64,000 bases of DNA from a virus (IMGVR_UViG_3300045391_000819:67722-131721); one strand, 5' to 3'; shown: positions 4,125 through 64,000, counted from the first letter of the stretch. The notes: generated by a model not told the origin, from the sequence alone. Numbers and translations are program-made.

Positions 4125-4133
4125 GTTTTAATA

Positions 4134-5705: not shown

Positions 5706-5791
5706 TGTTTAGTAAGTGTTATATGTAGAGCCTGTAAGACATTAGAATAATGTCTAATAATAAAACTCCTAGTATTTGCTTTACCGATCAT
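5702..5791 (-). CDS. 29-aa ORF MIGKANTRSFIIRHYSNVLQALHITLTKQ, probable remnant of a duplicated fibre-gene start
   Basis: Manual translation. Stop overlaps the next ATG (ATGA). First 7 aa identical to the 1137..4124 protein. Confidence 0.45.
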   Translation of the reverse strand: MIGKANTRSFIIRHYSNVLQALHITLTKQ

Positions 5792-5801
5792 TTATAATAA
5801 T

Positions 5802-6248: not shown

Positions 6249-9200
6249 GCTGCTCTATATGTTAAAGTTCCACTTGTTACTTTATTTCCTCTGACTACTA
6301 AGTTTCCTGAATCAGATACTACTATTTGTCCAGTTAAATAAGCATAGGATTCTGTATTAGCTGTAGTCCAACAAGTTGTGCTACCTGTATTTACTGCTGT
6401 TATTCTCACAGTTGCTATAAGCCCTGTTCCGCTTGATTGGGCTGACTGGAAAGCATCAATTGATGTTGTAGTTCCAGTATAGTTAATTGCAAATTTTACA
6501 CCAGCTGTACTACTAGATTGACCCAACAGCATAGCTTCAAATTGCCATGTTCCAGCAGTTAAAGCAATAGATAAACCACTTAAATCTGTTAAACTGGTTG
6601 ATGTTGTTGTGTTAGCAGTTGCCAATGCAACAAATGGTGAAATTCCACTATAACCCGAATAACCACTAATTCCAGAATAACCAGAATAACCAGACCATCC
6701 AGAAGAACCTGTTGTTAATAACCATGTATCGGTTGCTGTTTTAACTAAAGCTACAACAGAATACTGACCATTCATTACTAAACTAGGAGCTTCAATAGTT
6801 ACACCACCAGCAGCTACAATTGTAACAGTACCTGCACCAGCTTGTTCTACAACTATCTGTGAACCAACAGGAAATGCTACTGAAGCATTTGTAGGAACTG
6901 TCAAGTTGTGAGCAGAGGCACTACTCATCTTTATTCCAGTTCCAGCATCACCAAGTACTAAAGTATAGTCCGTATCGGTTTGAGTAGTAAACGTAAGAGT
7001 ATTTTGTCCACTAAAACCTGAGTATCCAGATTTACCGCTAAATCCTGAATAACCAGAAATACCGCTAAATCCTGAATAACCTGAGATTCCACTATATCCT
7101 GAATAACCACTAATTCCTGAATATCCACTATACCCACTTCTTCCACTAAATCCTGAGTATCCTGAAATACCTGAAAAACCTGAGAAACCTGAAGCTCCGG
7201 GATTAGCCCCCGAAAATCCAGAATAACCTGAAAGGCCACTGAATCCTGAATAACCTGATTTACCTGAGAACCCAGAATAACCTGAAATTCCAGAATATCC
7301 ACTATAACCACTATAACCCGAATACCCACTATAACCTGAAATTCCACTACTTAGGAGCCAAGTATCTGTAGCTTGCTTGACCAAACATACAGTAGAATAC
7401 TGAGCACCCATTGTTAGCCCTTGGGCATTAATAGTAACTCCTACACCTGCTGCAATTGTAACACCGCCTGTTCCTGCTTGCTCTATTACTATTTCTGTAC
7501 CTACGATAAATGCTACAGAAGAATTAGGAGGAACAGTTAATGTATGCGCAGATGCAGAATCCATCTTGATTCCTGTAAATGCATCTCCTAGAACTAAAGT
7601 ATAATCTGTGTCAGTTTGAGTAGTAAATGTTAAAGTACTAAGTCCACTAAATCCTGAATATCCTGATTTACCTGAGAAACCAGAGTAACCTGAAATACCT
7701 GAGAAACCAGAGTAACCAGAAATACCACTAAAACCAGAGTAACCAGAAATACCAGAACCTGAGTATCCAGAATAACCAGATAATCCTGAGAAACCTGAGT
7801 AACCTGAAAGACCACTATAACCTGAATATCCACTTAACCCACTATAACCTGAGTATCCAGAATAACCAGAATAACCTGTATGAGTAAATGTAATAACTAT
7901 AGGAGTGTTATTAGCAAATACGCCATTATTATTAACTATAGGTGTAACTGATAACTTTCTATATCCTGTACCATCTACAACCGATCCTGTTAATGTGAAT
8001 GATGCAAAGTTCGAAGAATTACTTTGTTGATATACTTTAAGATAACCTCTATTTGAACTAAAAGATGTATCATCAAAAGTATCAAGCCAAGTAGAAACAT
8101 CAGTTCCTGCTACGTTATTGTTATCTACATATATCGTAGTGATAGAAGCAAATGTAGCGTTATTGTATCTCAACAATCCACTTCCCGGATCAGCATCAGC
8201 AGTTGTAGTGCTGAATGTATACGCCTGAGAATCACCACCAAAGCCTCCTGAGAATCCGCTAAATCCAGAGTACCCAGATATACCAGAGTATCCCGAATAT
8301 CCACTAATTCCAGAATAACCAGAATAACCAGATATACCGCTATAACCACTATAACCAGAAAGTCCTGAGAATCCAGAATAACCAGATATACCAGAATAAC
8401 CACTGTAACCTGACCCACCACTAAAACCAGAGTAACCGCTAATTCCAGAGTATCCACTATAACCTGAAAGTCCACTATATCCTGAGTATCCTGACTTACC
8501 TGAGAATCCAGAAAATCCAGAAGCACCATCGCTTCCAATTACACCATCTTGTCCACTATAACCAGAATACCCACTTTTACCAGAGAAACCACTATATCCT
8601 GAAAGACCACTGTAACCAGAGTATCCAGATAAACCTGAGTAACCACTATAACCTGAAATACCACTACTCAATAACCAACTGTCGGTTGCTTGTTTTACCA
8701 AACAAACTACAGAATATTGAGCGCCCATTGTATAACCTTGAGCATCAATTGTTACTCCTAAACCGGGAGTTATTGTAACTGCTCCAGTACCTCCCTGCTC
8801 TATAACTATTTCTGTACCTACAACAAAAGGTACTGATGAATTTGGTGGAACAGTTAAGGTATGTGGAGAAGATGAGGACATCTTAACACCTGTAAAGGCA
8901 TCTCCTAAAACTAAGGTGTAGTCTGTATCAGTTTGAGTATTGAAGAGAAGAGTACTTAATCCACTAAATCCAGAATATCCTGAATAACCTGACTTTCCAC
9001 TAAAACCAGAATAACCAGATATTCCTGAATATCCTGAGTAACCTGAAAGACCACTGAATCCAGAGTAACCAGAGATTCCTGAATAACCAGAGTATCCACT
9101 CAATCCACTGAATCCAGAATATCCAGATATACCAGAATAACCAGATATACCAGAGTAACCTGAATATCCTGAATGACCTGAAGTTCCTGAGAACCCACTA

Positions 9201-53847: not shown

Positions 53848-54209
53848 ATTTTGGCTTTACTCCATTTTCTTTTATGTGTAAAATACGAATTAGCTATCTC
53901 GTTTCTACGTTCTAATAATCTTTTTAATTTTGTATATAATCTTATCCTAGTCTCTTCTCTCACATCTGGTTTGTAAATATTATCTAAAGTCCTTATATTC
54001 TTTATAATTACTTTTATTTCCTTTCTAAGTTTATGTCTACTTACAGCAATCGTTCCAAAGTTTTTTATAAAGATAGCGTTATAATTGGCTTCAGATAGAT
54101 TTCTCTTCACACCATTTTTCCAGAAATAGGCATTAACCTCTTTAACAATCTTCAAGTCCTTGCCTAATTTTTCTGCCGTTGCTTTATTAAAGTAATCAGG
54201 CGTTTTCAT
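53844..54209 (-). CDS. HU/IHF-like DNA-binding protein
   Basis: Basic; IFIKNFGTIAVS resembles the HU/IHF 'I.GFG.F.V' motif. Confidence 0.55.
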   Translation of the reverse strand: MKTPDYFNKATAEKLGKDLKIVKEVNAYFWKNGVKRNLSEANYNAIFIKNFGTIAVSRHKLRKEIKVIIKNIRTLDNIYKPDVREETRIRLYTKLKRLLERRNEIANSYFTHKRKWSKAKI

Positions 54210-54550
54210 TAACTATTATCTATCTGTATCAACATCCCAACTTTTACATCGAGAGTTAGATTTATATTCTCGTTAATCAAATATTCCTTTCTTCTACCTG
54301 CTGACTTCTTTATTAAACCTACTCTACTTAGCTTAGATATTGCATTCTTTAGAGAGTCTTCATTAAATATTTCGCTTTTAATAATGAGGTCTTTGGTCTC
54401 TTGCGTAATCTTATATACTAAAAAATAGGCAAGAACAGTCAACTCCGATTCAGAAAGTTTAATTTCTGATAAAAGGCAAAAAATCTTAAGCAAAGTCTTA
54501 GCCTGCTCGATCTTCGATTTAGTTTTCTTTACAACTTTAACGAGCTGCAT
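54209..54550 (-). CDS. Winged-helix-like hypothetical protein (start corrected to MQLVKVVK)
   Basis: The ORF-track start (54793) runs through tRNA genes. ATG at 54550 follows the 54580-54611 promoter. LKNAISKLSRVGLI is wHTH-like. Confidence 0.6.
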   Translation of the reverse strand: MQLVKVVKKTKSKIEQAKTLLKIFCLLSEIKLSESELTVLAYFLVYKITQETKDLIIKSEIFNEDSLKNAISKLSRVGLIKKSAGRRKEYLINENINLTLDVKVGMLIQIDNS

Positions 54551-54579
54551 TAGTTGGTTTTTATTAATTGATTCTGAAG

Positions 54580-54611
54580 CAAATATAATAAAAAAAGCTG
54601 AACTTACCAAA
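54580..54611 (-). promoter_or_regulatory. Bacteroidota sigma-A promoter (start of the morphogenesis operon)
   Basis: TTTG-N20-TATATTTG. Confidence 0.8.
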
Positions 54612-54656
54612 TCCATAAGGACTTGATAATCAGCTTTAACAATATTATAACGATTG

Positions 54657-54729
54657 CGTGCATGGAAGGAATCGAACCCACAACCTTCGGTTTTGGAGAC
54701 CGCTGCTCTACCAGTTGAGCTACACACAC
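54657..54729 (-). tRNA. trnW: tRNA-Trp(CCA)
   Basis: Cloverleaf; anticodon loop CT-CCA-AA; G73. Confidence 0.92.
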
Positions 54730-54735
54730 GTTTAG

Positions 54736-54811
54736 AACTCCCTGTCTGATTCGAACAGACACACAACTCTGGTTCGTAGCCAGAAGCACTCATCCATTAT
54801 GCTAAGGGAGC
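54736..54811 (-). tRNA. trnR: tRNA-Arg(ACG)
   Basis: Stem TCTGG/CCAGA, loop CT-ACG-AA. Confidence 0.9.
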
Positions 54812-54853
54812 AAGATCACCAGCATTTTCTCCAATTAAATTACCCGTTGGGTT

Positions 54854-54878
54854 AGAACGAGTTAGGATTCGAACCTAA
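54854..54878 (-). pseudogene. Orphan tRNA T-arm plus acceptor 3' strand
   Basis: TTAGG-TTCGAAT-CCTAA-CTCGTTC with no D or anticodon arm upstream. Confidence 0.5.
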
Positions 54879-54890
54879 AAGACTGGCGTG

Positions 54891-54965
54891 GGTGACTAAT
54901 CGGGATCGAACCGATACTCCTCTGCGTCACAGGCAGATACTTTAACCGTTTAAGCTATAGCCACC
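54891..54965 (-). tRNA. trnH: tRNA-His(GTG)
   Basis: Loop CT-GTG-AC; encoded G-1:C73 pair. Confidence 0.93.
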
Positions 54966-54970
54966 ATATG

Positions 54971-55043
54971 TTGCCTTGTTACGATTCGAACGTAAGTCGT
55001 CTGTTTCAGAGACAGAAATGTTTGACCGCTACACTACAAGGCA
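54971..55043 (-). tRNA. trnQ: tRNA-Gln(CTG)
   Basis: Loop CT-CTG-AA; T1:A72. Confidence 0.92.
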
Positions 55044-55046
55044 GTG

Positions 55047-55117
55047 TTCCCCTCGACAGACTCGAACTGCCACTTAGAAGCTTCAAAGGCTTCTGTGCTG
55101 CATTACACTAAAGGGGA
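55047..55117 (-). tRNA. trnQ: tRNA-Gln(TTG)
   Basis: Stem GAAGC/GCTTC, loop CT-TTG-AA; T1:A72. Confidence 0.88.
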
Positions 55118-55120
55118 GTG

Positions 55121-55196
55121 TGTGGATGATAAGAATCGAACTTACTTCAAGTCACGGAGCTTCAATCCGCCGCTATACCATATCAGCTACATCCAC
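55121..55196 (-). tRNA. trnF: tRNA-Phe(GAA)
   Basis: Stem GCGGA/TCCGT, loop TT-GAA-GC. Confidence 0.88.
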
Positions 55197-55532
55197 ATAT
55201 TTTAAAAAGTCTTGCTCATATCTAGTAGTATGTTCTAATCTATGACAATTAGCACATAATAATTCACATTTGTTTATTTCTTCCAACAAGATTTTCCAAG
55301 ACTTATGAGATACATTCCCTATGTTAAAACTTTTTGTAGATTCATCTTTATGATGAAATTCCAAAGCACCGGGATGATTATATCCACATTTTACACATTT
55401 TCCGCCAAGAAGATTTATAGCTTTAATCTTATTTCTATATCTTCTTATTTTGGTATTACATGAATGACAGCGTGTTCTATGACGTAATTGAAGCTGTCTA
55501 AATTCTCTTTTACAAATTTTACATATATCCAT
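55173..55532 (-). CDS. HNH homing endonuclease 1 (stop codon inside tRNA-Phe)
   Basis: CxxC N-terminus, LGGKCVKCGY...LEFHH...KCELLCANCHRLEH. Confidence 0.88.
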   Translation of the reverse strand: MDICKICKREFRQLQLRHRTRCHSCNTKIRRYRNKIKAINLLGGKCVKCGYNHPGALEFHHKDESTKSFNIGNVSHKSWKILLEEINKCELLCANCHRLEHTTRYEQDFLKYVDVADMV

Positions 55533-55536
55533 AATA

Positions 55537-55568
55537 CAAATATACGAAAAATTTTTGGTAATACCAAA
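55537..55568 (-). promoter_or_regulatory. Sigma-A promoter of HNH-1 (probably leaderless mRNA)
   Basis: TTTG-N20-TATATTTG; ATG only 4 nt downstream. Confidence 0.8.
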
Positions 55569-55582
55569 TTTGTTCTACCAAG

Positions 55583-55657
55583 AGCCTCTGGTCAGCCACG
55601 ATCTGACACTCCTCTGTTTACAAGACAGGAGCTTTACCTTCTTAAGCTACATGAGGC
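55583..55657 (-). tRNA. trnT: tRNA-Thr(TGT), atypical (possibly degenerate)
   Basis: Loop CT-TGT-AA; T-loop ATCGTGG instead of TTCRA; bulged A in the acceptor stem. Confidence 0.6.
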
Positions 55658-55695
55658 ATTTGACGGTGTTTATTGAGCTTTTCCGTCAGCTCTCG

Positions 55696-55771
55696 TCGGG
55701 ATGGCTGGATTCGAACCAGCGCATTCATGGCTCCAGACCACGTCGGAACAACCTGACTTCCGTACATCCCG
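55696..55771 (-). tRNA. trnP: tRNA-Pro(TGG)
   Basis: C1:G72, A73; loop TC-TGG-AG; canonical T arm. Confidence 0.9.
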
Positions 55772-55776
55772 ATAAC

Positions 55777-55801
55777 AAAAAACCCTCGAAGAATCGAGGG
55801 C
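55777..55801 (-). terminator. Attenuator C terminator
   Basis: GCCCTCGA-TTCT-TCGAGGGT followed by TTTTT, about 5 nt before tRNA-Pro. Confidence 0.88.
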
Positions 55802-55829
55802 TAACAATTTATGCAGATTTAAAGTTCAC

Positions 55830-55916
55830 TTATCTAAGTGTATCACCATCACGCATAGTTAGCCCTATCCCTGTGGGTTGGGTAAACCAAAAACGTGTAT
55901 GTTGAAACTTTATCAT
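55830..55916 (-). CDS. Leader peptide C, MIKFQHTRFWFTQPTGIGLTMRDGDTLR (28 aa)
   Basis: Manual translation. Codons 4-15 are all F/Q/H/T/R/W/P, the amino acids of the downstream tRNA block. Confidence 0.9.
   Translation of the reverse strand: MIKFQHTRFWFTQPTGIGLTMRDGDTLR
55858..55866 (-). promoter_or_regulatory. Antiterminator strand C
   Basis: AGGGCTAAC is a perfect 9-bp complement of GTTAGCCCT (55797-55805), which overlaps the terminator 5' arm. Confidence 0.82.
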
Positions 55917-55986
55917 TTTAAAAGAGGAATCCTACTTATTTCACCTATCGGCATAACCTGCGATATACGCATTTCAGATTCGAGAA

Positions 55987-56018
55987 CAAACTTACGACAA
56001 TTTTTTGAAATCACCAAA
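55987..56018 (-). promoter_or_regulatory. Sigma-A promoter of tRNA block C
   Basis: TTTG-N20-TAAGTTTG. Confidence 0.85.
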
Positions 56019-56052
56019 TTTATTTTGGGATTTTAACAAAAATTGATTATTG

Positions 56053-56121
56053 TGGGGCAGGAAGTACTCGAAACTTCGGGTTTGCGTTTTACAGACGTTA
56101 CCATTGCCCTGATTCTACCCC
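56053..56121 (-). tRNA. trnY: tRNA-Tyr(GTA), highly atypical
   Basis: Acceptor GGGGTAG/CTGCCCC and a normal T arm. CTGTAA loop has an irregular stem; short D arm; no long variable arm. Confidence 0.55.
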
Positions 56122-56127
56122 ATATAG

Positions 56128-56213
56128 CGGAGAGCATTGGATTCGAACCAATGGGCCGATTTCTCGACCACAGTTTAGCAAACTGCTCTAATTGACCACT
56201 CTAGCAGCTCTCC
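56128..56213 (-). tRNA. trnS: tRNA-Ser(GCT)
   Basis: Loop TT-GCT-AA; long variable arm; G73. Confidence 0.92.
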
Positions 56214-56216
56214 GGT

Positions 56217-56303
56217 TGGCGGTGGGAACAGGATTCGAACCTGCACAGCTGTTACACCTTCATGGTTTTCAAGACCAATAAGCCCTCTCTAATGCGTCCC
56301 ACC
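56217..56303 (-). tRNA. trnS: tRNA-Ser(TGA), CCA encoded
   Basis: Loop CT-TGA-AA; long variable arm; G73-CCA; unusual D arm. Confidence 0.85.
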
Positions 56304-56308
56304 GAATG

Positions 56309-56382
56309 TCCCTCTGACTGGTCTCGAACCAGCACTATACAGATTTTAAGTCTGCTGCGTCTCCCAATTGCGCCACAGAGGG
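56309..56382 (-). tRNA. trnL: tRNA-Leu(TAA), short variable loop
   Basis: Loop CT-TAA-AA; Leu-type D arm GGCGCAATTGGGAGACGC; A73. Confidence 0.9.
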
Positions 56383-56386
56383 TTAG

Positions 56387-56460
56387 TGCCGATGACAGGG
56401 GTCGAACCTGCGCAGTACTGCTTCTAAGGCAGTTGTGTCTCCCAATTGCACCACATCGGC
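56387..56460 (-). tRNA. trnL: tRNA-Leu(TAG), short variable loop
   Basis: Loop CT-TAG-AA; A73. Confidence 0.9.
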
Positions 56461-56463
56461 TTG

Positions 56464-56537
56464 TACCTGTAGAGGGTCTCGAACCCACACCTTATAGTTT
56501 TTGAAACTATTGCGTCTCCCAATTGCGCCATACAGGT
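56464..56537 (-). tRNA. trnL: tRNA-Leu(CAA), short variable loop
   Basis: Loop TT-CAA-AA; A73. Confidence 0.9.
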
Positions 56538-56539
56538 AT

Positions 56540-56573
56540 AAAAAAGAAAACCCCCCAGTTTTTAGCTGGAGGG
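56540..56573 (-). terminator. Attenuator B terminator
   Basis: CCCTCCAG-CTAAAAA-CTGGGGGG followed by TTTTCTTTTTT, abutting tRNA-Leu(CAA). Confidence 0.9.
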
Positions 56574-56603
56574 TCAAGTTAAATCCCGTAGGATAAAACA
56601 TCT

Positions 56604-56672
56604 TTACATACCACTTCCAGCTCTCAGTTCACTGAGATAATACAGACTGGAATATGATAAGCAATTTTTCAT
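56604..56672 (-). CDS. Leader peptide B, MKNCLSYSSLYYLSELRAGSGM (22 aa)
   Basis: Manual translation. Codons 5-14 are all L/S/Y, the amino acids of the downstream tRNA block. Confidence 0.9.
   Translation of the reverse strand: MKNCLSYSSLYYLSELRAGSGM
56616..56622 (-). promoter_or_regulatory. Antiterminator strand B
   Basis: AGCTGGA is the 7-bp complement of TCCAGCT (56564-56570) in the terminator 5' arm and loop. Confidence 0.78.
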
Positions 56673-56782
56673 TTTGATTTCTGGAATAGTTCTTTTACTT
56701 TTGTAAATACCCAAGTCAATGCGTCGATGATGGGTTCTTTAAAGAAAGCACCAATAACAGCACCAATTAATAGGTTAATCAT
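56669..56782 (-). CDS. 37-aa putative membrane peptide MINLLIGAVIGAFFKEPIIDALTWVFTKVKELFQKSK
   Basis: Manual translation; hydrophobic N-terminus; its TGA overlaps the ATG of leader B (ATGA). Confidence 0.7.
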   Translation of the reverse strand: MINLLIGAVIGAFFKEPIIDALTWVFTKVKELFQKSK

Positions 56783-56812
56783 AATTTATAAGGTTTAATT
56801 AAAAAACGAATG

Positions 56813-56844
56813 CAAATATACGGAAAATTTCTGAAATTACCAAA
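56813..56844 (-). promoter_or_regulatory. Sigma-A promoter of tRNA block B
   Basis: TTTG-N20-TATATTTG. Confidence 0.85.
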
Positions 56845-57688
56845 TTCTTCCTCTATTTTTTATTTTTCTATATCTAACTGCTTCATCTGCAAGGTTTCGC
56901 ATCATAGTTGGATTCCTTGTAGCCTTGTGATATTCATTGGCAAGTCTCTCATTTATTCTTGCGTGAGTCTGGCCTTCCCATATTCTAGTCGTATAATCAC
57001 GGCCTACAAATGGATGCCATAGATGGAAGATACAACCTCTTTTAGTCTTGTGTTTACCGTACAAGGTATCAAGTGCTCTAAGCAAAGCTACATCCTCACC
57101 ACCCCATCCTACAAATCTTTCGTCAAAACAGCCAATCGCTTCATAGGCTTCTCTTGGAAATATCATAGCCATAGCTCCATATCTGTGTCCATATCTGCTC
57201 TTATCCCTATGATCGCTTAACATATGATCTTGTGGATGACATATAATGCGTACAGGACATTCAGGTACTGAAGCTAAAATATCCTCAGTTATACATCTAT
57301 TCAAACGATACAAATGACGATAAGGAACGAACCATAAATGCTTGTCAAGATTTTCTAATATCTTATCTGCACATGATTCTACTATGTGACCGGGCAGGTA
57401 AGCATCAGCATCAAGGATAGCTATAACCCTTCCTCTTGATTTTCTAACAGCATCATTAAGGGCTTCACCCTTACAAAATACTCTACCTCTGGAGCGTCCC
57501 ACAACAATTTCTGCTTGTGGAAGTTCAGCTCTCCAGTATCTCATTAGCCACTGAAAGGCTGCTAGTCTCCAAGGATCAGTAGAAGAAAAAGGGATTATAA
57601 TGCTTATTTTCGGTCTTTTTCTAAATATTCTTCTCCTATCTCCTAGTAAAAATTTTCTTAATCTCTTCAAAAACGTCAAAGATTTCAT
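56837..57688 (-). CDS. Glycosyltransferase, GT2/GT7-like
   Basis: ISIIIPF, ILDADAY (DxD), GCFDERFVGWGGEDV. Confidence 0.88.
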   Translation of the reverse strand: MKSLTFLKRLRKFLLGDRRRIFRKRPKISIIIPFSSTDPWRLAAFQWLMRYWRAELPQAEIVVGRSRGRVFCKGEALNDAVRKSRGRVIAILDADAYLPGHIVESCADKILENLDKHLWFVPYRHLYRLNRCITEDILASVPECPVRIICHPQDHMLSDHRDKSRYGHRYGAMAMIFPREAYEAIGCFDERFVGWGGEDVALLRALDTLYGKHKTKRGCIFHLWHPFVGRDYTTRIWEGQTHARINERLANEYHKATRNPTMMRNLADEAVRYRKIKNRGRIW

Positions 57689-58364
57689 GTTGTTTGTCTA
57701 TTATAATGTTTCTATCAATAAGTTGGGTCACGCCAATTTCAAGCTTAACACCTAAGCTTGCGCTATAATCCAACCATTTAAACAATCCACCCTCTTGGTG
57801 GGAGTGACTTAACATTCTTGGTGAGATTTCAATTCGTCTTGGGATATTAAAAGCATCAGCTAAAACAATCCCATGTAAAGACGAACTGACAATTTTCTTA
57901 CATTTTCCTATCTCGCTTATTACCTTCAGCGGATCGTCTGATACCCTAATTATCTTAGGGTTGTATTTTAGAAAGGTAGGATTTTTTTCAAGGGTTTTAT
58001 CTGTCCAATGCGGAACAAGTCCTAGGTCATATTGTTTATCTTCAATTTTGACAAGCTCATCAGCAAGCAGACCGGGATCACCTAATACAAAATTGCCCTT
58101 TAATCCTTTTGCAGTTAATGGCCCACGTAAGGCCAAAATCTTTGCATAAGGTAAGTCCAATTTTGTATTTTCATGCAGTTTACCAGCACCAGCAATTACT
58201 CCATCCCAATATTTTGGCAAATGTTCAAGGATAGAACCGATAACTACTAACTCTGCATAATCTGGATCAGTCCACTGAGAATCCAATCCTGTAAATCGCT
58301 TTATCAGCAAGGAAGAAAGCAAATCGCCAAAATTTCTTTTCGCTTGCCAATAGTATAATCTCAT
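57636..58364 (-). CDS. Polysaccharide pyruvyltransferase family protein
   Basis: NFGDLLS, GSIL, ALRGPLT, GDPGLL, GLVPHW, IVSSSLHGIVLADAFNIP. Confidence 0.88.
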   Translation of the reverse strand: MRLYYWQAKRNFGDLLSSLLIKRFTGLDSQWTDPDYAELVVIGSILEHLPKYWDGVIAGAGKLHENTKLDLPYAKILALRGPLTAKGLKGNFVLGDPGLLADELVKIEDKQYDLGLVPHWTDKTLEKNPTFLKYNPKIIRVSDDPLKVISEIGKCKKIVSSSLHGIVLADAFNIPRRIEISPRMLSHSHQEGGLFKWLDYSASLGVKLEIGVTQLIDRNIIIDKQHEIFDVFEEIKKIFTRR

Positions 58365-58439
58365 CGTCGTTCGTTAAACTTTTAGTAAAGTTACTAATAA
58401 ATGAGATAGGTTCAAAATAGATAATTATTTTTGATGACA

Positions 58440-58895
58440 TTATAAGCGACATAAGTGGTCAGCAGCTTTCGCTGCTATCATGTCGTCTGGCTTTATTCTA
58501 GTCTGGTATCCTAGTGAGTTTGCCCATCCTGTCAAAGCAGGAATCAAGTTAGTAGATTTTGTAATCTTTTTATTGTTATAGTCAAACTCTAATGCTTCGA
58601 TCTTCAATGGAATTTCAGCCACTATCATTTCAGCACACTCAATTGTAAGTTCTCCTTCTTTCCAAAGTCTAGTAAAGATGTCACGGATTCTTGGAATACG
58701 CTGTTTCAAATAGATGTAGTGAGCACCACGCTGTCCGTAACGGAATACAATAGCTGTTACAAATACTGACTTTCCCCCATAATTTTGTGAATCGGTTGCT
58801 ATGTAAATCTTTAGATTGTCCTGTTTGACTTGTTCCTGACAATGTTCTATTACATTTACAAGACCTCCCTCTTCTGTCTTGAAGTACTTTTCCAT
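58440..58895 (-). CDS. RNase H-like protein, YkuK/DUF458 family
   Basis: IYIATDSQ, RLWKE, EFDYN, IKPD..IAAKAADH. Confidence 0.8.
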   Translation of the reverse strand: MEKYFKTEEGGLVNVIEHCQEQVKQDNLKIYIATDSQNYGGKSVFVTAIVFRYGQRGAHYIYLKQRIPRIRDIFTRLWKEGELTIECAEMIVAEIPLKIEALEFDYNNKKITKSTNLIPALTGWANSLGYQTRIKPDDMIAAKAADHLCRL

Positions 58896-58907
58896 TGGTT
58901 TTTATTG

Positions 58908-58981
58908 TGGAGGTGATGGGATTCGAACCCACCCCAAGTTGCTTGCAAAGCATCTTCGCCAACCATAGGCCATGCACCCCC
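58908..58981 (-). tRNA. trnA: tRNA-Ala(TGC)
   Basis: G3:U70; loop TT-TGC-AA; A73; unusual D arm. Confidence 0.88.
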
Positions 58982-58985
58982 GTAG

Positions 58986-59058
58986 TGCTCATACTAAGAC
59001 TCGAACTTAGACTCACCTGAGTATCAGTCAGGTACTTTAACCATTAAGCTATATGAGC
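58986..59058 (-). tRNA. trnI: tRNA-Ile(GAT)
   Basis: Stem CCTGA/TCAGG, loop CT-GAT-AC. Confidence 0.93.
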
Positions 59059-59061
59059 ATG

Positions 59062-59134
59062 TGCTCCTACTCGGACTCGAACCAAGACTCTTGTGGATAT
59101 AAGCCACCTGCTTTCACCGTTAAGCTATAGGAGC
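59062..59134 (-). tRNA. trnI: tRNA-Ile(TAT)
   Basis: Stem GTGG/CCAC, loop CT-TAT-AT; body paralogous to the adjacent Ile(GAT). Confidence 0.88.
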
Positions 59135-59296
59135 GAGATTATGATCTTTAATGGCTTTCTCAAGTCTTTTGTTCGCTTTAATCAATTCCGAGATAGATTT
59201 GAAAGTTCCAAGCTGTCTCAAAACCTCTATGTCATCTACTTCCAAAATCGCCATATAACCTTTAAATTTTCTTTCTTCCGCAGTGATTTGTAGCAT
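59120..59296 (-). CDS. 58-aa hypothetical protein (start corrected; stop inside tRNA-Ile(TAT))
   Basis: The ORF-track start overlaps tRNA-Asp. ATG at 59296 follows the 59320-59350 promoter. Confidence 0.55.
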   Translation of the reverse strand: MLQITAEERKFKGYMAILEVDDIEVLRQLGTFKSISELIKANKRLEKAIKDHNLAPIA

Positions 59297-59319
59297 CTTT
59301 CCCACTTTTACATGATTCT

Positions 59320-59350
59320 CAAATATACATAAGTATACCGTATACCCAAA
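59320..59350 (-). promoter_or_regulatory. Internal sigma-A promoter
   Basis: TTTG-N19-TATATTTG. Confidence 0.7.
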
Positions 59351-59393
59351 TAGGGATACGCCAGCGAATAGTATAAGAAATATCCAAAACAAG

Positions 59394-59470
59394 CCGTGAG
59401 CAAGGGGTTCGAACCCTCCTGATTGTACTCCGTGACAGGGAGACGGCCACTCCAAGCAGCCCCGCCCACG
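59394..59470 (-). tRNA. trnD: tRNA-Asp(GTC)
   Basis: Loop CT-GTC-AC; G73; starts immediately after the stop of the 59471..60838 gene. Confidence 0.9.
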
Positions 59471-60838
59471 TTATTTTATTTTTCTCCAAACTCTATTGTG
59501 AACGATATTAAATAGGTGTTCATATTGATCGTGATTAATTCCGGGTGGTAAAAGTTCATCCACTCCATCACAAACAGATTGAATACCTCTAAAATATCCC
59601 CAAGGCATCGGAAATTTACATGCCGAATCATCTATAACCAGATAGCCTCCAACTTTGAGCAAAGGCCCATAGTTTATAATGTCACTCTGAACGCAGGATT
59701 TCGCATGACAACCATCTATATATAGAATATCCAACAGTAATCCGCTTGCGCTTTCTATAACTTTGGGATCAGTTGAATCTCCTTTCAGTATAATATAATC
59801 AGCCCAGATATTAAACTGGTCATGAATCTTTCTTATATCTGCTTCATAATCACTTTCCCAATTTATTTCAGCAGGCGATAAAGGCGTCACCCCGTATCGC
59901 ATCACTGATTTTCCAGCTAAATTTGCTAGCATACCAATCAGTGAAAGAATTTGACCTCTGAATACTCCGATTTCTAAGAAAACAAAATGTTCAGGCATCT
60001 TATCTACCAATAACTTCCACATCCATTGAAAACTACGTTCTCCAAATCCCCAAGCATTCTGTTCAACCCAATCTCTGTGTGCCTTTAATTCTGGTGAATT
60101 ATTGACCTTCTTTTTAAAAACATCATTGGTTTTAACATTGTATTGCTCAGTAGGCTGCCACAGTTTTATTACTTCATCTATAGAATTATATTCATCATCA
60201 AGTAAATCAATGATCTTAGTCATATCCGTCCTTCCGTTACCATGAATTATAGAAGGTTCGGTTCCAGTATTCTTGTTTATCAATCTACCACTCTTATATT
60301 CAAATTCACCTTCCGCTATAAATGAATAACATTGAAATATCTCGCAGTTATAATCTAAAGTTATATTACCCTTTAGAAATACGTTTGTAAAGAAGAGTTG
60401 GTCATCATCTGCATATCCTACTGAGTATTCTTTAAGTAAATTCAAGAACTTTTCAATAGGAGCCATATAACTACCTGAGTTTAAATACTTATATAAGGAT
60501 TCATTTTCAGGATAACTATTTGCCAAGGTTGGATCAGGCCAGCAATTCTTCTCAGTCGAAAATACTATTTGGTCTTGGAAACGAGCATCATAGATTTTCT
60601 CTATATTCTCCAATCCGTCTAAGAATATTACATCATAAGCATCTACGAAAATAAAGTGAGTGTAGCCTGCAAGTAATTTCAAATATTGTTGTAATAATAT
60701 TATCTTAGTTCCAAATCCCTTCCATCTGCTTTTTTTACCTAAAATTACTAGGTCTATACCTTTGCGTTCTAAACTATATTTTAATCTATCAAGTCCTTCA
60801 TCTTCCTTAGTTGCTACAGTAATTACTACAGTTCTCAT
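59471..60838 (-). CDS. PLOD/LH3-type glycosyltransferase domain fused to a class I SAM methyltransferase
   Basis: N-terminus VITVAT...W.GFG.KI..L...FVDAYDV...FSTEKNCWPD...YLNSG...DDDQLFFT...LD...IFQ...HGNG. C-terminus FLEIGVFRG...ILYIDG.H...D...Y..LLK.GG..V.DD. Confidence 0.88.
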   Translation of the reverse strand: MRTVVITVATKEDEGLDRLKYSLERKGIDLVILGKKSRWKGFGTKIILLQQYLKLLAGYTHFIFVDAYDVIFLDGLENIEKIYDARFQDQIVFSTEKNCWPDPTLANSYPENESLYKYLNSGSYMAPIEKFLNLLKEYSVGYADDDQLFFTNVFLKGNITLDYNCEIFQCYSFIAEGEFEYKSGRLINKNTGTEPSIIHGNGRTDMTKIIDLLDDEYNSIDEVIKLWQPTEQYNVKTNDVFKKKVNNSPELKAHRDWVEQNAWGFGERSFQWMWKLLVDKMPEHFVFLEIGVFRGQILSLIGMLANLAGKSVMRYGVTPLSPAEINWESDYEADIRKIHDQFNIWADYIILKGDSTDPKVIESASGLLLDILYIDGCHAKSCVQSDIINYGPLLKVGGYLVIDDSACKFPMPWGYFRGIQSVCDGVDELLPPGINHDQYEHLFNIVHNRVWRKIK

Positions 60839-61449
60839 GGTTTATATTGATACAGAGCCTTCTTGTCCCTTTTCTCAACTATCTTAAATCCTATATTAAG
60901 TAGGTAATCTTCTATCTTTTGATGGTCATAATATACATCCTGTGTACTTACATCATCAAAACAAAAACAAGCTCCTTCGTTTATTCTAGTCTCGAAAAAT
61001 TGTACTTCCTTAAGAATTGCTTCTACTGAATGTGGCCCATCAAAGTTTACAAACGAATACTTATCAACTAACTTTCTACTAATACTATATACAGGAATCC
61101 CATCTTTATAATAATCAAAAAAATCCAAATCACTCATATTAATGAAAACGAAATGAACGTTCTTATGATTAGCGTATGGATAAAGTAACTGCAAACAATC
61201 AGCCTTCATCGCTTCTGTATAATCCAATCTAACAAAATGATTCTGCTTATGTTCATAAAGCACTGAACCATATGGGTCTATAGCAACTGCTATTTTATTC
61301 GGACAATGACGATGGATAGAATCTATTATCTCTTTGGTTCCACCTCCCATCCTAAGACCTATCTCTAAACAAGCTCCTTCAGTATCTTTGCTTAACTGTA
61401 CTCCTTTATATACTAAGTCGTAATCCCAACTGTCGCCGTGTAGTTTCAT
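60835..61449 (-). CDS. Class I SAM-dependent methyltransferase
   Basis: CLEIGLRMGGGT, AIDPY, FVNFDGPH, FCFDD. Confidence 0.82.
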   Translation of the reverse strand: MKLHGDSWDYDLVYKGVQLSKDTEGACLEIGLRMGGGTKEIIDSIHRHCPNKIAVAIDPYGSVLYEHKQNHFVRLDYTEAMKADCLQLLYPYANHKNVHFVFINMSDLDFFDYYKDGIPVYSISRKLVDKYSFVNFDGPHSVEAILKEVQFFETRINEGACFCFDDVSTQDVYYDHQKIEDYLLNIGFKIVEKRDKKALYQYKP

Positions 61450-62210
61450 TTAAAAGGATTATAGTAAATAGATTGTTTTCCTTCTCTGTAACCTCTTAAA
61501 ACTTTGTGATACTCTTGCCATTGTTCGCCAGCATGATTCTCCTTCCAAGTTTGATATGGTGTACCACCTGCATCTATATGGTCAATATCTATATAAGGTA
61601 GAAACACGTTTATAAAACCAGCGAGCTGACTTCTGACTGATGCAAGTGAATCATCAAATCCGTAAAGTCTAGGTTGATAAAGGTATCCAATTTTGTCAAG
61701 CAATGCTGATGAATACATTTGACATGTTCCCATAACATGATTGACTTTCTCTGCTACCATCCATTTTTCACCCGGTTTATGTGGAAGCATTATGAGTTCT
61801 GATTTGTAAAAATCTGTACGCTCTGGTGATTCCCATAAGTCTTTCCTTTTAAGTCCAACCTGTCCAATTGTAGGCTCTCTTCTAATAGCTTCTTCCATTT
61901 CATCCACCCAATCATAACTATTAACTATTACATCATTATCCATTTTAATACAATTCTCACCTTCTTTACGAAACTTCCAAGCTCTATTTATTGCTTCTGC
62001 TGTTCCAATGTTATGTCCATTTATTAGAATAGTTGCATTAGGAAAATCATGATATAATTGTTTGGTTTCATCACAAGAATTATTATCTATTATAAATATT
62101 CTATGTTTGTGATAATCAATTCTGTCAAAGAGCGATTCTAATGTGCGTCGTGTATATTCCGTCCGTTTATTCTCTTCGGTATCATACACAGCCATTGCAA
62201 TTAATGCCAT
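61446..62210 (-). CDS. Glycosyltransferase family 2
   Basis: IIDNNSCD, NIGTAEAIN, KMDNDV (DxD), YGFDD. Confidence 0.85.
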   Translation of the reverse strand: MALIAMAVYDTEENKRTEYTRRTLESLFDRIDYHKHRIFIIDNNSCDETKQLYHDFPNATILINGHNIGTAEAINRAWKFRKEGENCIKMDNDVIVNSYDWVDEMEEAIRREPTIGQVGLKRKDLWESPERTDFYKSELIMLPHKPGEKWMVAEKVNHVMGTCQMYSSALLDKIGYLYQPRLYGFDDSLASVRSQLAGFINVFLPYIDIDHIDAGGTPYQTWKENHAGEQWQEYHKVLRGYREGKQSIYYNPFK

Positions 62211-62223
62211 TGGTTTTATTTAG

Positions 62224-62296
62224 TACTCCCAACCAGATTCGAACTGGTGTTCTAAGCTTGAAGGGCTTCTGTCCTCGACCACTAGACGATAGGAGC
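62224..62296 (-). tRNA. trnE: tRNA-Glu(TTC), C at position 33
   Basis: Glu-type D arm (GTCTAGTGGTCGAGGAC); stem AAGC/GCTT; loop CC-TTC-AA. Confidence 0.85.
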
Positions 62297-62302
62297 AATT
62301 AG

Positions 62303-62375
62303 AGCGGAAAGAGAGAATCGAACTCTCATGTCCAGTTTGGAAGACTGGTGTAATCAGCCATTATACGACTTCCGC
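62303..62375 (-). tRNA. trnG: tRNA-Gly(TCC)
   Basis: Stem CCAGT/ACTGG, loop CT-TCC-AA; U73. Confidence 0.93.
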
Positions 62376-62452
62376 TGCTTACGGTTTTACACCCACTAGC
62401 AGATGGGTGCTGTGCTGCCACACTCTAGTTGCTAAACCGAAAAAAGCACTCG
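62376..62452 (-). ncRNA. Structured spacer RNA 3' of tRNA-Met with HDV/theta-like helix order
   Basis: GTGCT/AGCAC, CGGTTT/AAACCG and CACCCA/TGGGTG helices; no obvious catalytic C. Confidence 0.35.
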
Positions 62453-62523
62453 TTGCGAGGGATGGAGTTGAACCACCCCAAAACAAAGTTATGAGCCTTG
62501 TCGGGCCACCGGGCCTCCTCACA
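62453..62523 (-). tRNA. trnM: tRNA-Met(CAT), truncated D arm
   Basis: Loop CT-CAT-AA; T1:A72; T-loop TTCAACT. Initiator vs elongator identity is uncertain. Confidence 0.75.
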
Positions 62524-62704
62524 ATATTCTTACACCTGTATCAATAGTCCAAAGGATTATCTTACCTTCTCTTACATTCTCTAAGAGTTTTTTAAGCTCA
62601 TAGACTGAGTCTTTAAGAGGTAGGGATGAAAGCCAGTGTATTAGCTTATCCCTATTTCCTTTGTACTTTACTATACTTGCAACCTTTACTTTAGGTTCTT
62701 TCAT
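62519..62704 (-). CDS. 61-aa hypothetical protein (stop inside tRNA-Met)
   Basis: ORF track; fills the gap between the tRNA-like RNA and tRNA-Met. Confidence 0.55.
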   Translation of the reverse strand: MKEPKVKVASIVKYKGNRDKLIHWLSSLPLKDSVYELKKLLENVREGKIILWTIDTGVRIL

Positions 62705-62705
62705 G

Positions 62706-62857
62706 CTGTAAGGGTAGGATTCGAACCTACATGTGGGGATTCAAATAGATACACAAGATTTTTTACCATTAGTGGTCAACCCGATTATATCTATTCTATT
62801 TCACCATTCCACGCCCCTGAGACAAAGGGGTGCGTCTGCCAGTTTCGCCACCTTACA
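62706..62857 (-). ncRNA. 152-nt tRNA-like RNA with an 83-nt variable-arm insertion
   Basis: Acceptor TGTAAGG/CCTTACA, Leu-like D arm, CCCCT-TTGTCTC-AGGGG arm, perfect T arm GTAGG-TTCGAAT-CCTAC. Confidence 0.75.
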
Positions 62858-62864
62858 ATTTTCG

Positions 62865-62936
62865 CTGGAGTGGAGAATTTCGAAATCTCAACCTAATGCT
62901 TAACAGGCAATTGCTCTCCCTTTGAGCTACACTCCA
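62865..62936 (-). tRNA. trnN: tRNA-Asn(GTT)
   Basis: T1:A72, G73; loop CT-GTT-AA. Confidence 0.9.
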
Positions 62937-63319
62937 TTATGATGTTCTTTTCTATGACAATTTGCACACAAAACTACGCACTTGTCAATTTCTTTTAATA
63001 ATCTTTTTCTTCCCCATGTTGCCATACCGCCCACCTGAAAATCTTTTTTACTTGGATCAACATGATGAAACTCTAAACAAGCAATATGCTTTTCTCCACA
63101 TCTCTCACAGGCTAAATTTCTTTTAAGTTCTCTAAACCATTCTTTTAATCTGTGGTTACTTTCTCTGGCTTTATCTATATACTTTTGTTTATTCTTTTGA
63201 TAATGTTCTCGTATATAAATTTTTCTACACTCTTTGCACATTGATTGGAAACCATTTCCTTTCCTATGGAAATTTGTTTCATTTTTTGGTAGATGACATC
63301 TTATACATATTCTTTCCAT
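62927..63319 (-). CDS. HNH homing endonuclease 2 (start corrected to MERICIRC; stop inside tRNA-Asn)
   Basis: CxxC...CxxC N-terminus, CERCGE..ACLEFHHVDP..K.F...KCVVLCANCHRKEH. The ORF-track start overlaps tRNA-Arg. Confidence 0.88.
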   Translation of the reverse strand: MERICIRCHLPKNETNFHRKGNGFQSMCKECRKIYIREHYQKNKQKYIDKARESNHRLKEWFRELKRNLACERCGEKHIACLEFHHVDPSKKDFQVGGMATWGRKRLLKEIDKCVVLCANCHRKEHHNGV

Positions 63320-63323
63320 AAAA

Positions 63324-63355
63324 CAAATATACATAAAATATTCGAAACTACCAAA
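63324..63355 (-). promoter_or_regulatory. Sigma-A promoter of HNH-2 (probably leaderless mRNA)
   Basis: TTTG-N20-TATATTTG; ATG 4 nt downstream. Confidence 0.8.
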
Positions 63356-63372
63356 TATTTTAGAAACTTTCG

Positions 63373-63445
63373 AAGAGCTGATGTGAGTCGAACACATATT
63401 CTTTGCTTAGAAGGCAAGAGTCCTCATCCATTAAACGACAGCTCC
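63373..63445 (-). tRNA. trnR: tRNA-Arg(TCT)
   Basis: Loop CT-TCT-AA; canonical T arm. Confidence 0.88.
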
Positions 63446-63448
63446 ATG

Positions 63449-63523
63449 TACATCTGAGTAGATTCGAACTACTGGTCTCCCACTTGTAAGGAGGGCGCTT
63501 TCAACCAACTAAGCTACAGATGC
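63449..63523 (-). tRNA. trnV: tRNA-Val(TAC)
   Basis: Loop CT-TAC-AA; T-T mismatch in the anticodon stem. Confidence 0.9.
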
Positions 63524-63585
63524 GTTTGCTGACTTTGACGTACGTACGCAAGTGTTATTCGTCAGCAATATTCCACTCGTCAATG

Positions 63586-63660
63586 AGGACAGGGAGGGAT
63601 TCAAACCCCCGACTTTACTGCTTTGCAGGCAGTTGCATTCAATCACTCTGCCACCTGTCC
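63586..63660 (-). tRNA. trnC: tRNA-Cys(GCA)
   Basis: Loop CT-GCA-AA; U73. Confidence 0.92.
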
Positions 63661-63663
63661 ATG

Positions 63664-63737
63664 TGCTCCGACTCGGACTCGAACCGAGAACCTTCTCCTT
63701 AAGAGGGAGTAGCTCCACGCAATTGAGCTATCGAAGC
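63664..63737 (-). tRNA. trnK: tRNA-Lys(CTT)
   Basis: Loop CT-CTT-AA. Confidence 0.9.
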
Positions 63738-63740
63738 GTG

Positions 63741-63815
63741 TGCACTCGGAGGGCATCGAACCCCCGACCCCAAGATTAAAAGTCAAGTACTCTACCAAAA
63801 CTGAGCTACGAGTGC
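63741..63815 (-). tRNA. trnK: tRNA-Lys(TTT)
   Basis: Loop CT-TTT-AA; stem CTTGA/TCTTG has two T-T mismatches. Confidence 0.88.
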
Positions 63816-63845
63816 AAATAAAAAACCCTGCTTGTTCAGCAGGGC
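63816..63845 (-). terminator. Attenuator A terminator
   Basis: GCCCTGCT-GAACA-AGCAGGGT followed by TTTTTATTT, directly abutting tRNA-Lys(TTT). Confidence 0.9.
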
Positions 63846-63875
63846 TTCAGTATTTTCAGTAAAATGACTATGTTG

Positions 63876-63968
63876 TTATTTGTCACCACTAGACAATACG
63901 ATCCCTGCACCAGCAAGCTCTTTCGCTCTGCCGTTGCCACAAATCATATTATCCACTATTAAATACAT
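63876..63968 (-). CDS. Leader peptide A, MYLIVDNMICGNGRAKELAGAGIVLSSGDK (30 aa)
   Basis: Manual translation. Codons 4-17 use only, and all of, I,V,D,N,M,C,G,R,A,K,E, the 11 amino acids of the downstream tRNA block. Confidence 0.88.
   Translation of the reverse strand: MYLIVDNMICGNGRAKELAGAGIVLSSGDK
63903..63908 (-). promoter_or_regulatory. Antiterminator strand A
   Basis: GCAGGG duplicates the terminator 3' arm and can pair with CCCTGC (63839-63844) in the 5' arm. Confidence 0.7.
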
Positions 63969-64000
63969 TTTCTGCTGTTTTGTAAATTTGGACTGCAAAC

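Follow-up and report, generated by a model that had tools for sequence, protein, structure and literature searches.

The DNA analysed here, a window of 64,000 nt from the soil phage IMGVR_UViG_3300045391_000819, whose contig is circular, carries three blocks of tRNA genes. ARAGORN confirmed the tRNA genes and anticodons listed in a preliminary description of this DNA, and at a lowered threshold it added a Ser(tga) gene (56217-56303) and an irregular Tyr(gta)-like gene (56052-56121). As had been proposed there, no amino acid except Arg has tRNAs in two blocks; the Arg(tct) gene belongs to block A and the Arg(acg) gene to block C. The blocks, and the genes within them that matter most below, are the following.

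58907-63815, minus strand: block A, 13 tRNAs (Lys ttt, Lys ctt, Cys, Val, Arg tct, Asn, Met, Gly, Glu, Asp, Ile tat, Ile gat, Ala) with protein genes in between
63372-63445, minus strand: tRNA-Arg(tct) of block A, reader of AGR
59061-59134, minus strand: tRNA-Ile(tat) of block A
58985-59058, minus strand: tRNA-Ile(gat) of block A
56052-56537, minus strand: block B, Leu caa, Leu tag, Leu taa, Ser tga, Ser gct and the irregular 70-nt Tyr(gta)-like gene
54656-55771, minus strand: block C, Pro, Thr, an HNH gene, Phe, Gln ttg, Gln ctg, His, Arg acg, Trp
54735-54811, minus strand: tRNA-Arg(acg) of block C

The Tyr gene of block B is apparently defective, and the anticodon arms of several tRNAs of the phage are irregular. 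When near-identical DNA was sought in a collection of isolated phages, the matches were single tRNA genes only.

Each block is preceded by a short leader, and in all three units the order is promoter, short ORF with start and stop, terminator and tRNA block, as in an attenuator. Promoter-like boxes of the form TTTG-N17-21-TAnnTTTG occur 12 times in the window vs. 2.2 expected, and leaders B and C are each preceded by one. Such boxes also lie within blocks A and C (63324-63355, 59320-59350 and 55537-55568), and judging from their positions the distal tRNAs, Arg(acg) among them, could escape attenuator control. The terminators have GC-rich stems of 9-12 bp followed by a T run and end 5-10 nt before the first tRNA. 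Contigs across 54600-64000 from four soil runs carried the leaders without any variant, and a search among RNA runs returned none that contains this phage. In the list, as throughout, a codon box comprises the codons that share their first two positions, ATA being counted apart from ATY, and the sensor is the regulatory stretch of the leader ORF.

63876-63968, minus strand: leader ORF A, 30 codons; its promoter, TTTG-N-TAnnTTTG, spans the junction of the circular contig
63918-63959, minus strand: sensor A, codons 4-17, 14 codons that take in all 12 codon boxes of block A
63816-63848, minus strand: intrinsic terminator A, stem of 11-12 bp and T run, adjoining tRNA-Lys(ttt) at 63815
56604-56672, minus strand: leader ORF B, 22 codons
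56631-56660, minus strand: sensor B, codons 5-14 (TTA, CTG, CTC; TCA, TCC, two AGT; three TAT)
56540-56575, minus strand: intrinsic terminator B
55830-55916, minus strand: leader ORF C, 28 codons
55872-55907, minus strand: sensor C, codons 4-15, CGT among them
55772-55802, minus strand: intrinsic terminator C, adjoining tRNA-Pro(tgg) at 55771

To these elements can be added a segment in each leader that is able to pair with the 5' arm of the terminator or a sequence overlapping it.

63902-63911, minus strand: candidate antiterminator segment A, GCAGGG pairing with CCCTGC of the terminator 5' arm
56616-56622, minus strand: antiterminator segment B, AGCTGGA pairing with TCCAGCT (56564-56570) of the terminator 5' arm
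55858-55866, minus strand: antiterminator segment C, AGGGCTAAC pairing with GTTAGCCCT (55797-55805), overlapping the terminator 5' arm

The candidate in leader A is weak in the window (p=0.22) and occupies the position of the strong ones in related phages. Our comparison set, drawn from 19 related phage genomes with at least four different array layouts, comprised 38 leaders, and in 31 of these a segment a few nt past the last sensor codon complements the terminator 5' arm better than shuffled controls do (mean z -3.3, combined p 3e-29). Equilibrium folds of leader C showed that the antiterminator displaces the terminator, fully or partly, when the ribosome is placed at codons 3-13, and that the terminator forms with the ribosome at codon 14 onward or absent. 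In the corresponding folds of leaders A and B there was no switching and the terminator was kept throughout; here switching appeared only when the RNA was cut before the terminator 3' arm. Since the terminator hairpin has the greater stability, as in trpL, only the truncated-RNA folds are informative for leaders A and B.

Among the genome's 1262 small ORFs, leaders A, B and C are each the top match to the amino-acid set of their own block. This correspondence extends to the comparison set, where 489 of 501 sensor residues fall within the amino-acid set of the block and the sensors cover 253 of the 268 block specificities. It also follows rearrangements of the arrays. In L001 it is the third block that contains the Asn and Asp tRNAs, and the Asn and Asp codons are in its leader; in L174-L178 Cys has shifted to block C together with its codons. 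Similarly, Arg(tct) is missing from L124, and the internal Arg codon found at that leader site in L042 and L112 is missing as well. A cultured relative, Leptolyngbya phage Lbo-JY46 (PP438436.1), has the same three leaders. In five other large relatives (L006, L011, L037, L046 and L049) tRNA scanning returned few, scattered tRNAs and no arrays.

The preliminary description had further claimed that Arg is split between the leaders by codon family, and this holds: leader A uses AGA (63927-63929) and block A has Arg(tct), and leader C uses CGT (55893-55895) and block C has Arg(acg). Likewise, leader A holds both ATA (63957-63959) and ATT (63942-63944) and block A both Ile(tat) and Ile(gat). When the codons were redrawn synonymously according to codon usage in the phage (AGR 70%, CGN 30%), the window by itself gave no significant excess, with P of about 0.2 for the Arg match and about 0.08 for the Arg/Leu/Ser/Ile boxes. 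The relatives gave a much clearer picture, as tabulation of leader codons against anticodons at homologous loci in the 19 genomes showed a match for Arg (CGN/AGR), Leu (TTR/CTN) and Ser (TCN/AGY). Sensors of blocks with Arg(tct) only had 10 AGR and no CGN codons, and those of blocks with Arg(acg) only had 10 CGN codons (5 CGT, 4 CGC, 1 CGA and no CGG) and one AGG. CGG is outside the reach of inosine-34. In L001, where both Arg tRNAs are in a single block, the leader has AGA and CGC. The association between Arg family and block anticodon was significant (Fisher p = 3e-5), in counts that are non-independent because many of the 38 leaders are homologous. Synonymous randomisation gave 1 Arg mismatch vs. 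20.6 expected (P<1/4000), and with one genome per layout there were 0 mismatches vs. 6.6 expected (P=0.003). Blocks with Leu(tag) only had CTN in 5 of 5 cases and blocks with both kinds of Leu tRNA had both codon families every time (P=0.002 for Leu). The third base varies between relatives while the box stays, and beyond the sensors the Arg codons come from both families, as they do in ordinary genes.

For Arg, Leu and Ser boxes together there were 3 mismatches or gaps vs. 30 expected (P<1/4000). Exceptions among the relatives are leader C of L005, with an AGG at the sensor edge that overlaps the antiterminator; leader B of Lbo-JY46, which retains AGT and TAT with Ser(gct) and Tyr outside that block; leader C of L176, without an Arg codon despite Arg(acg) in the block; and L124, which retains AGA at codon 2 with Arg(tct) not detected. 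Ile was excluded from the box statistics because of one group of tRNAs. Beside Ile(gat) in L001, L042, L124 and Lbo-JY46, tRNAs with a CAT anticodon form a separate cluster in the place of Ile(tat); these are candidate lysidine-type Ile2 tRNAs, which would read the ATA codons of their leaders, and in BLAST against E. coli they had only one weak match, to a tRNA-Ile (E=2).

Of the isoacceptor-specific sensing put forward in the preliminary description, the part that concerns codon boxes is supported and the part that concerns single tRNA species is not. In 7 of the 8 blocks with a C34 isoacceptor, the Watson-Crick codon of that tRNA is missing from the sensor; AAG, CAG and TTG are absent from the sensors of the window, though Lys ctt, Gln ctg and Leu caa are present. 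Where a C34 tRNA is present the sensor codons are 10 A-ending vs. 1 G-ending, and over all third positions the Watson-Crick complement of the anticodon is not enriched. A-ending codons make up 35% of U34 boxes in sensors vs. 36% in genes, and C-ending codons 12% vs. 27% (p=1e-6) of the two-codon Y boxes read by G34. The four-codon boxes of sensors and genes differ in T-ending (15% vs. 49%), C-ending (27% vs. 8%) and G-ending codons (23% vs. 7%). The pairs that had been set aside as imperfect matches (GGC with Gly(TCC), CCC with Pro(TGG), ACC with Thr(TGT), and CTC and TCC in leader B) belong to this strong, systematic skew, in which rare codons ending in C or G are favoured, and are not exceptions. 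Possibly, C-ending codons of four-codon boxes are poorly read by the block's U34 tRNA and read by host G34 tRNAs instead. The third-position skew suggests that the sensitivity of the sensor is tuned via synonymous codon choice.

These data bear on what the leaders respond to. A strict isoacceptor sensor, with one codon per tRNA species and evolved to replace tRNAs cleaved by host anticodon nucleases, would require a match at the box level, which is what we observed. In a study of T5 and PARIS phage tRNAs reportedly rescue infection from tRNA-cleaving defence, and the irregular anticodon arms in several tRNAs of this phage also fit such a role. However, C34 isoacceptors are left unsampled and anticodons are not complemented at third positions, the coverage of all 24 decoding classes goes beyond known nuclease targets, and the sequence points to no nuclease and no cleavage event. 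The same anatomy would serve any tRNA shortage. As any ribosome-mediated attenuator reads codons via particular tRNAs, the box match is equally compatible with cleavage, host tRNA decay, codon-usage mismatch and feedback by phage tRNAs, and we consider the strict, nuclease-driven form unlikely.

A less probable explanation still, to which we give only a small chance, is that synonymous choice in the sensors is dictated by RNA structure (pairing of region 1 with region 2) and not by decoding. The predicted pairing of third bases in four-codon boxes is higher for G/C than for A/T (0.75 vs. 0.59, p=0.0008), and in the fold without a ribosome the CGT of leader C is paired to a segment downstream of it; structure may be one contributor to the skew. 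Yet this leaves unexplained why the box tracks the downstream anticodon across layouts; the depletion of C-ending codons in two-codon Y boxes is the opposite of a general G+C demand, and non-sensor parts of the leaders, which also form helices, show no C-ending enrichment. A match at the amino-acid level only, with the Arg families agreeing with the anticodons as a result of codon usage and common descent, is already disfavoured and in our view very improbable, for although it accords with the P of about 0.2 from the window alone, with AGA being the commonest Arg codon (56%) and with the non-independence of homologous leaders, it does not account for CGN in 10 of 11 cases in acg-only blocks when CGN is 30% of Arg codons, for five of those being CGC or CGA (3% each in usage), for the preserved box under a varying third base, for four layouts, one of them combining both tRNAs and both families, obeying one rule (P=0.003 with representatives), or for the mixed Arg codons beyond the sensors.

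With leader anatomy, covariation of codon boxes with blocks and antiterminator complementarity demonstrated by computation, our preferred reading, which we hold to be probable on the basis of the sequence, is that the three leaders are ribosome-mediated transcription attenuators that sense the codon boxes of the downstream tRNAs, i.e. decoding capacity. Each unit would have a promoter of its own and a short ORF that is translated, then an antiterminator/terminator pair and the tRNA block behind, and the regulatory stretch would sample the codon boxes of those tRNA genes, mostly once per box. Since Arg has two boxes and two reading tRNAs, it would have two specificities, AGR/Arg(tct) in unit A and CGN/Arg(acg) in unit C. 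Slowing of the ribosome at any sensor codon would leave the downstream segment free to pair with the terminator 5' arm, and the whole block would be transcribed; uninterrupted translation would cover the antiterminator segment and the terminator would form. The sensor would then act as an OR gate across 5-12 codon boxes, and its readout would be tRNA supply and not amino-acid pools. We infer that the ORFs are translated, that stalling lets transcription read through, and that the loop is closed by feedback from the tRNAs of the phage itself.

More tentatively, the units might be closed-loop 'tRNA-stats' with codon-box resolution, in which the sensor codons are those that the block's U34 and G34 tRNAs decode worst. 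If so, the worst-read codons would be the rare C- and G-ending ones in four-codon boxes and the T-ending ones in two-codon boxes. Transcription of the block would halt only once the phage's tRNAs reach a high set point, and it would restart when any species drops, through host tRNA decay or an anticodon-nuclease defence.

Phage tRNA genes are usually viewed as constitutive passengers. The present sequence argues for control according to need, the logic of the trp operon applied to the translation machinery, and the box-level rule is the sharpest evidence for it. Coupling of a leader's codon family to the tRNA gene of its own transcription unit makes sense only if the leader measures the supply of that tRNA, which argues that the switch follows decoding capacity and not amino acids.

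Literature searches turned up no account of tRNA genes being controlled by leader peptides. The tRNA region of phage T5 was considered as a parallel and rejected, as its annotated small ORFs have no stretch that matches the neighbouring tRNAs. Among Rfam models, Trp_leader (RF00513) scored 25.6 bits against a gathering threshold of 41 and the trpB motif (RF04312) 31 bits against 59, and the T-box model (RF00230) had no covariance-model match at E<=1 in 54000-64000. T-box riboswitches similarly sense a specific tRNA by codon-anticodon recognition and act by transcription antitermination, but they use no ribosome or ORF, respond to whether a single tRNA is charged, and have synthetase or amino-acid genes as their targets. 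Close likeness is also seen with the attenuators of enterobacterial amino-acid operons, of which the ilvGMEDA leader and thrL are multivalent. With these the phage leaders have in common a promoter and short ORF, an intrinsic terminator, antiterminator and terminator hairpins that exclude each other, and the use of one leader for several amino acids that are sensed via the tRNAs reading chosen codons. Rare synonymous codons in the regulatory stretch are a further likeness, to the leu leader, which reportedly has rare CUA codons in the work of Carter, Bartkus and Calvo in PNAS in 1986. Unlike the enterobacterial attenuators, the phage leaders have promoters of the Bacteroidota type, sample each box about once, with up to 12 boxes in 14 codons and no runs of a single codon, and would govern tRNA genes instead of biosynthetic enzymes, with a set of boxes that tracks the tRNA genes downstream.

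The window makes up the final 64 kb of a circular phage contig of 131,721 bp (36.5% G+C, 69-bp end overlap), and several soil metagenomes contain identical DNA. The terminase is crAss-like, with Leptolyngbya phage Lbo-JY46 as the nearest isolate (52% identity) and Cellulophaga and gut crAss-like phages next. All tRNA genes of the window are on the minus strand. ARAGORN reported 25 and, with a lowered threshold, also a Ser(tga) gene (56217-56303), weakly matched by Rfam, and an irregular 70-nt Tyr(gta)-like gene (56052-56121), for which Rfam gave no match. Together the 27 genes provide every one of the 24 decoding classes in a minimal anticodon set and add three extras with C34 (C as first anticodon base). 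The three tRNA-Leu genes (56308-56537) are just 75 nt each and so lack the long variable arm, and the Tyr(gta)-like gene has a 3-bp D stem and a weak anticodon stem; in relatives, e.g. L082, Leu and Tyr tRNA genes are 85-87 nt. The Tyr gene of block B may be defective, though leader B retains three TAT codons. Between blocks A and B the minus strand encodes a 151-aa RNaseH_like (PF04308) protein (58440-58895), kept at the same place in L082, L005, Lbo-JY46 and L174-L178; it may act in tRNA processing.

Arg is the sole amino acid with tRNAs in two blocks of the window, as the preliminary description had stated, and its three leaders and the codons it names are at the positions it gave:

63876-63968, minus strand: leader A, short ORF 5' of a terminator and tRNA block A; AGA 63927-63929, ATT 63942-63944, ATA 63957-63959
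63372-63445, minus strand: tRNA-Arg(tct), block A
55830-55916, minus strand: leader C, the corresponding ORF of block C; CGT 55893-55895
54735-54811, minus strand: tRNA-Arg(acg), block C

The sensor, the internal codon stretch sampling the codon boxes (first two codon positions) read by the downstream block, has complete coverage in 3 of 3 window leaders. In leader A, the 12 boxes of block A are all represented within codons 4-17. Codons 5-14 of leader B include Leu TTR, Leu CTN, Ser TCN, Ser AGY and Tyr, and in leader C codons 4-15 sample each of the 7 boxes of block C. For each leader, its own coverage score was attained by no other of the genome's 1262 small ORFs. Leaders A and B also gave sub-threshold Rfam matches to Trp_leader (25.6 bits, 63818-63894) and the trpB motif (31 bits, 56539-56665), which probably reflect a common hairpin-plus-terminator shape. 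Leader B begins with an ATG that shares bases with the stop codon (ATGA) of a 37-aa hydrophobic ORF (56673-56782, minus strand), an arrangement also present in L007 (185-313), so translation of some leaders may be coupled to that of a small membrane protein encoded upstream.

The proposal that Arg is divided between leaders A and C by codon family is weak when drawn from the window alone. The phage uses AGA for 56% of its Arg codons, AGG for 14%, CGT for 23% and CGC, CGA and CGG together for 7%. When synonymous codons were redrawn from this usage, about 20% of redraws placed both Arg codons in the correct box, and about 8% fitted all Arg, Leu, Ser and Ile boxes. Relatives were gathered through terminase relatives in IMG/VR and metagenome contigs, the cultured phage Lbo-JY46, and loci anchored on the RNaseH_like protein, giving, with the window, 38 promoter-leader-terminator-tRNA units from 19 genomes. 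With terminase identities of ~30% to 63%, saturation is to be expected at synonymous sites. There are at least four array layouts:

Array layouts among the relatives
A-B-C, as in the window: L082, L003, L005, Lbo-JY46
C-A-B, Cys shifted into block C: L174-L178
Pro, Gln, His, Arg(acg), Leu, Ser, Tyr in one block; Ala ... Arg(tct) ... Cys in another: L033, L042, L112, L124
Both Arg tRNAs in the first block, Asn and Asp in the third: L001
Small arrays: L007, L051, L107, L140, L159

In every layout the leader tracks its block: the amino acids of the block account for 489 of 501 sensor residues, and the sensors include 253 of 268 block specificities. Tabulated against anticodons over these loci, as the preliminary description had proposed, the Arg families follow the block's tRNA. 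Sensors of blocks with Arg(tct) only have nine AGA, one AGG and no CGN, and those of blocks with Arg(acg) only have five CGT, four CGC, one CGA, no CGG and one AGG (Fisher's exact test, p = 3e-5); this lone AGG is at the sensor edge in L005, within its antiterminator. The L001 leader, with both Arg tRNAs in one block, has AGA and CGC. Synonymous randomisation gave 20.6 expected mismatches against one observed (P<1/4000), or 6.6 against none with one genome per layout (P=0.003), and leader Arg codons outside the sensors are mixed. CGC and CGA are each 3% of Arg codons in these phages, yet account for half the CGN codons in sensors. The box stays constant and its third base drifts. For Leu, two blocks with Leu(tag) only have exclusively CTN (5/5), and every block with both Leu tRNA kinds shows both codon families (P=0.002). 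Ser likewise shows both families in every block with both tRNAs, which is not significant alone. Exceptions are Lbo-JY46 leader B, retaining AGT and TAT with Ser(gct) and Tyr outside that block; L176 leader C, without an Arg codon; and L124, where AGA is kept at codon 2, the internal one is lost and Arg(tct) is not detectable.

In L033 (~5520-5655), L042 (~2580-2708), L112 and L124, tRNA-Glu is preceded by its own promoter box and a Glu-rich short ORF that continues into the gene with no intervening terminator, possibly a single-tRNA leader of a different kind. The tRNA at the Val(tac) position of Lbo-JY46 (PP438436.1, 2168-2241) carries C at position 33 (anticodon loop CCTACAA), and ARAGORN therefore calls it Cys(aca). 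A distinct cluster of CAT-anticodon tRNAs adjoins Ile(gat) at the place of the window's Ile(tat) (L001 4559-4634, L042 3406-3478, L124 4627-4699, Lbo-JY46 4563-4639); they probably represent Ile2 tRNAs of the lysidine type and as such would decode the leaders' ATA codons.

The preliminary description held that leaders sense individual tRNA isoacceptors. The match of codon box to block anticodons stood across genomes, but single tRNA species were not resolved: AAG, CAG and TTG, for the C34 tRNAs Lys(ctt), Gln(ctg) and Leu(caa), are absent from the window's sensors, and across genomes blocks with a C34 tRNA have 10 A-ending and 1 G-ending codons, compared with 42 and 26 elsewhere. In these sequences the sensors resolve codon boxes rather than single tRNA species. 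Nor are GGC, CCC, ACC, CTC and TCC imperfect matches standing as exceptions; they belong to a strong and unexpected third-position pattern. Where a single U34 tRNA serves a four-codon box, the third base of sensor codons is T in 15%, C in 27%, A in 35% and G in 23%, against 49%, 8%, 36% and 7% in the phages' genes (chi-square p = 1e-41; p = 1e-12 on 11 representatives of an earlier 25-leader set). In two-codon boxes with G34 tRNAs, C-ending codons are rarer in sensors (12% vs 27%, p = 1e-6), and no C excess is seen in the codons of these leaders outside the sensor. By analogy with the leu leader, whose rare CUA codons are slowly decoded, the skew may pick slowly decoded codons. It may also partly serve the sensor/antiterminator helix, given that third bases pair more often when they are G or C; this leaves the C depletion in two-codon boxes unexplained.

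In predicted folds leader C is a textbook attenuator switch. In the ribosome-free fold AGGGCTAAC (55858-55866) is paired with the sensor and the terminator is present; when a ribosome occupies codons 3-13, AGGGCTAAC pairs instead with GTTAGCCCT (55797-55805) and the terminator is fully or partly lost, to return from codon 14 on. In leader B, AGCTGGA (56616-56622) is complementary to TCCAGCT (56564-56570), and the predicted fold switches in RNA cut before the terminator 3' arm. The antiterminator partner of leader A is just 6 bp and not significant; strong partners occur at this position in relatives. Over the whole set, a segment starting a few nt past the last sensor codon complements the terminator 5' arm far better than shuffled controls (31 of 38 leaders at p<=0.05, combined p = 3e-29). 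Upstream of the leaders are promoter-like boxes of the Bacteroidota type, for which TTTG / TAnnTTTG is typical. Lbo-JY46 (1750-6260) has these boxes at its leaders, yet its record names a cyanobacterial host, Leptolyngbya boryana. Minus-strand TTTG-N-TAnnTTTG boxes also occur inside block C (55537-55568) and block A (59320-59350, 63324-63355), two of the three preceding HNH endonuclease genes; distal tRNAs may thus escape the attenuator and be transcribed independently.

A literature search for leader-peptide control of tRNA genes found no description, and none of the annotated small ORFs of phage T5 is such a leader. Ribosome-mediated attenuation, the mechanism class to which the present leaders would belong, is classical. 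What is not classical is that the target is tRNA genes, that the sensor is a checklist sampling each box once, and that sensor and block covary at the level of the box.
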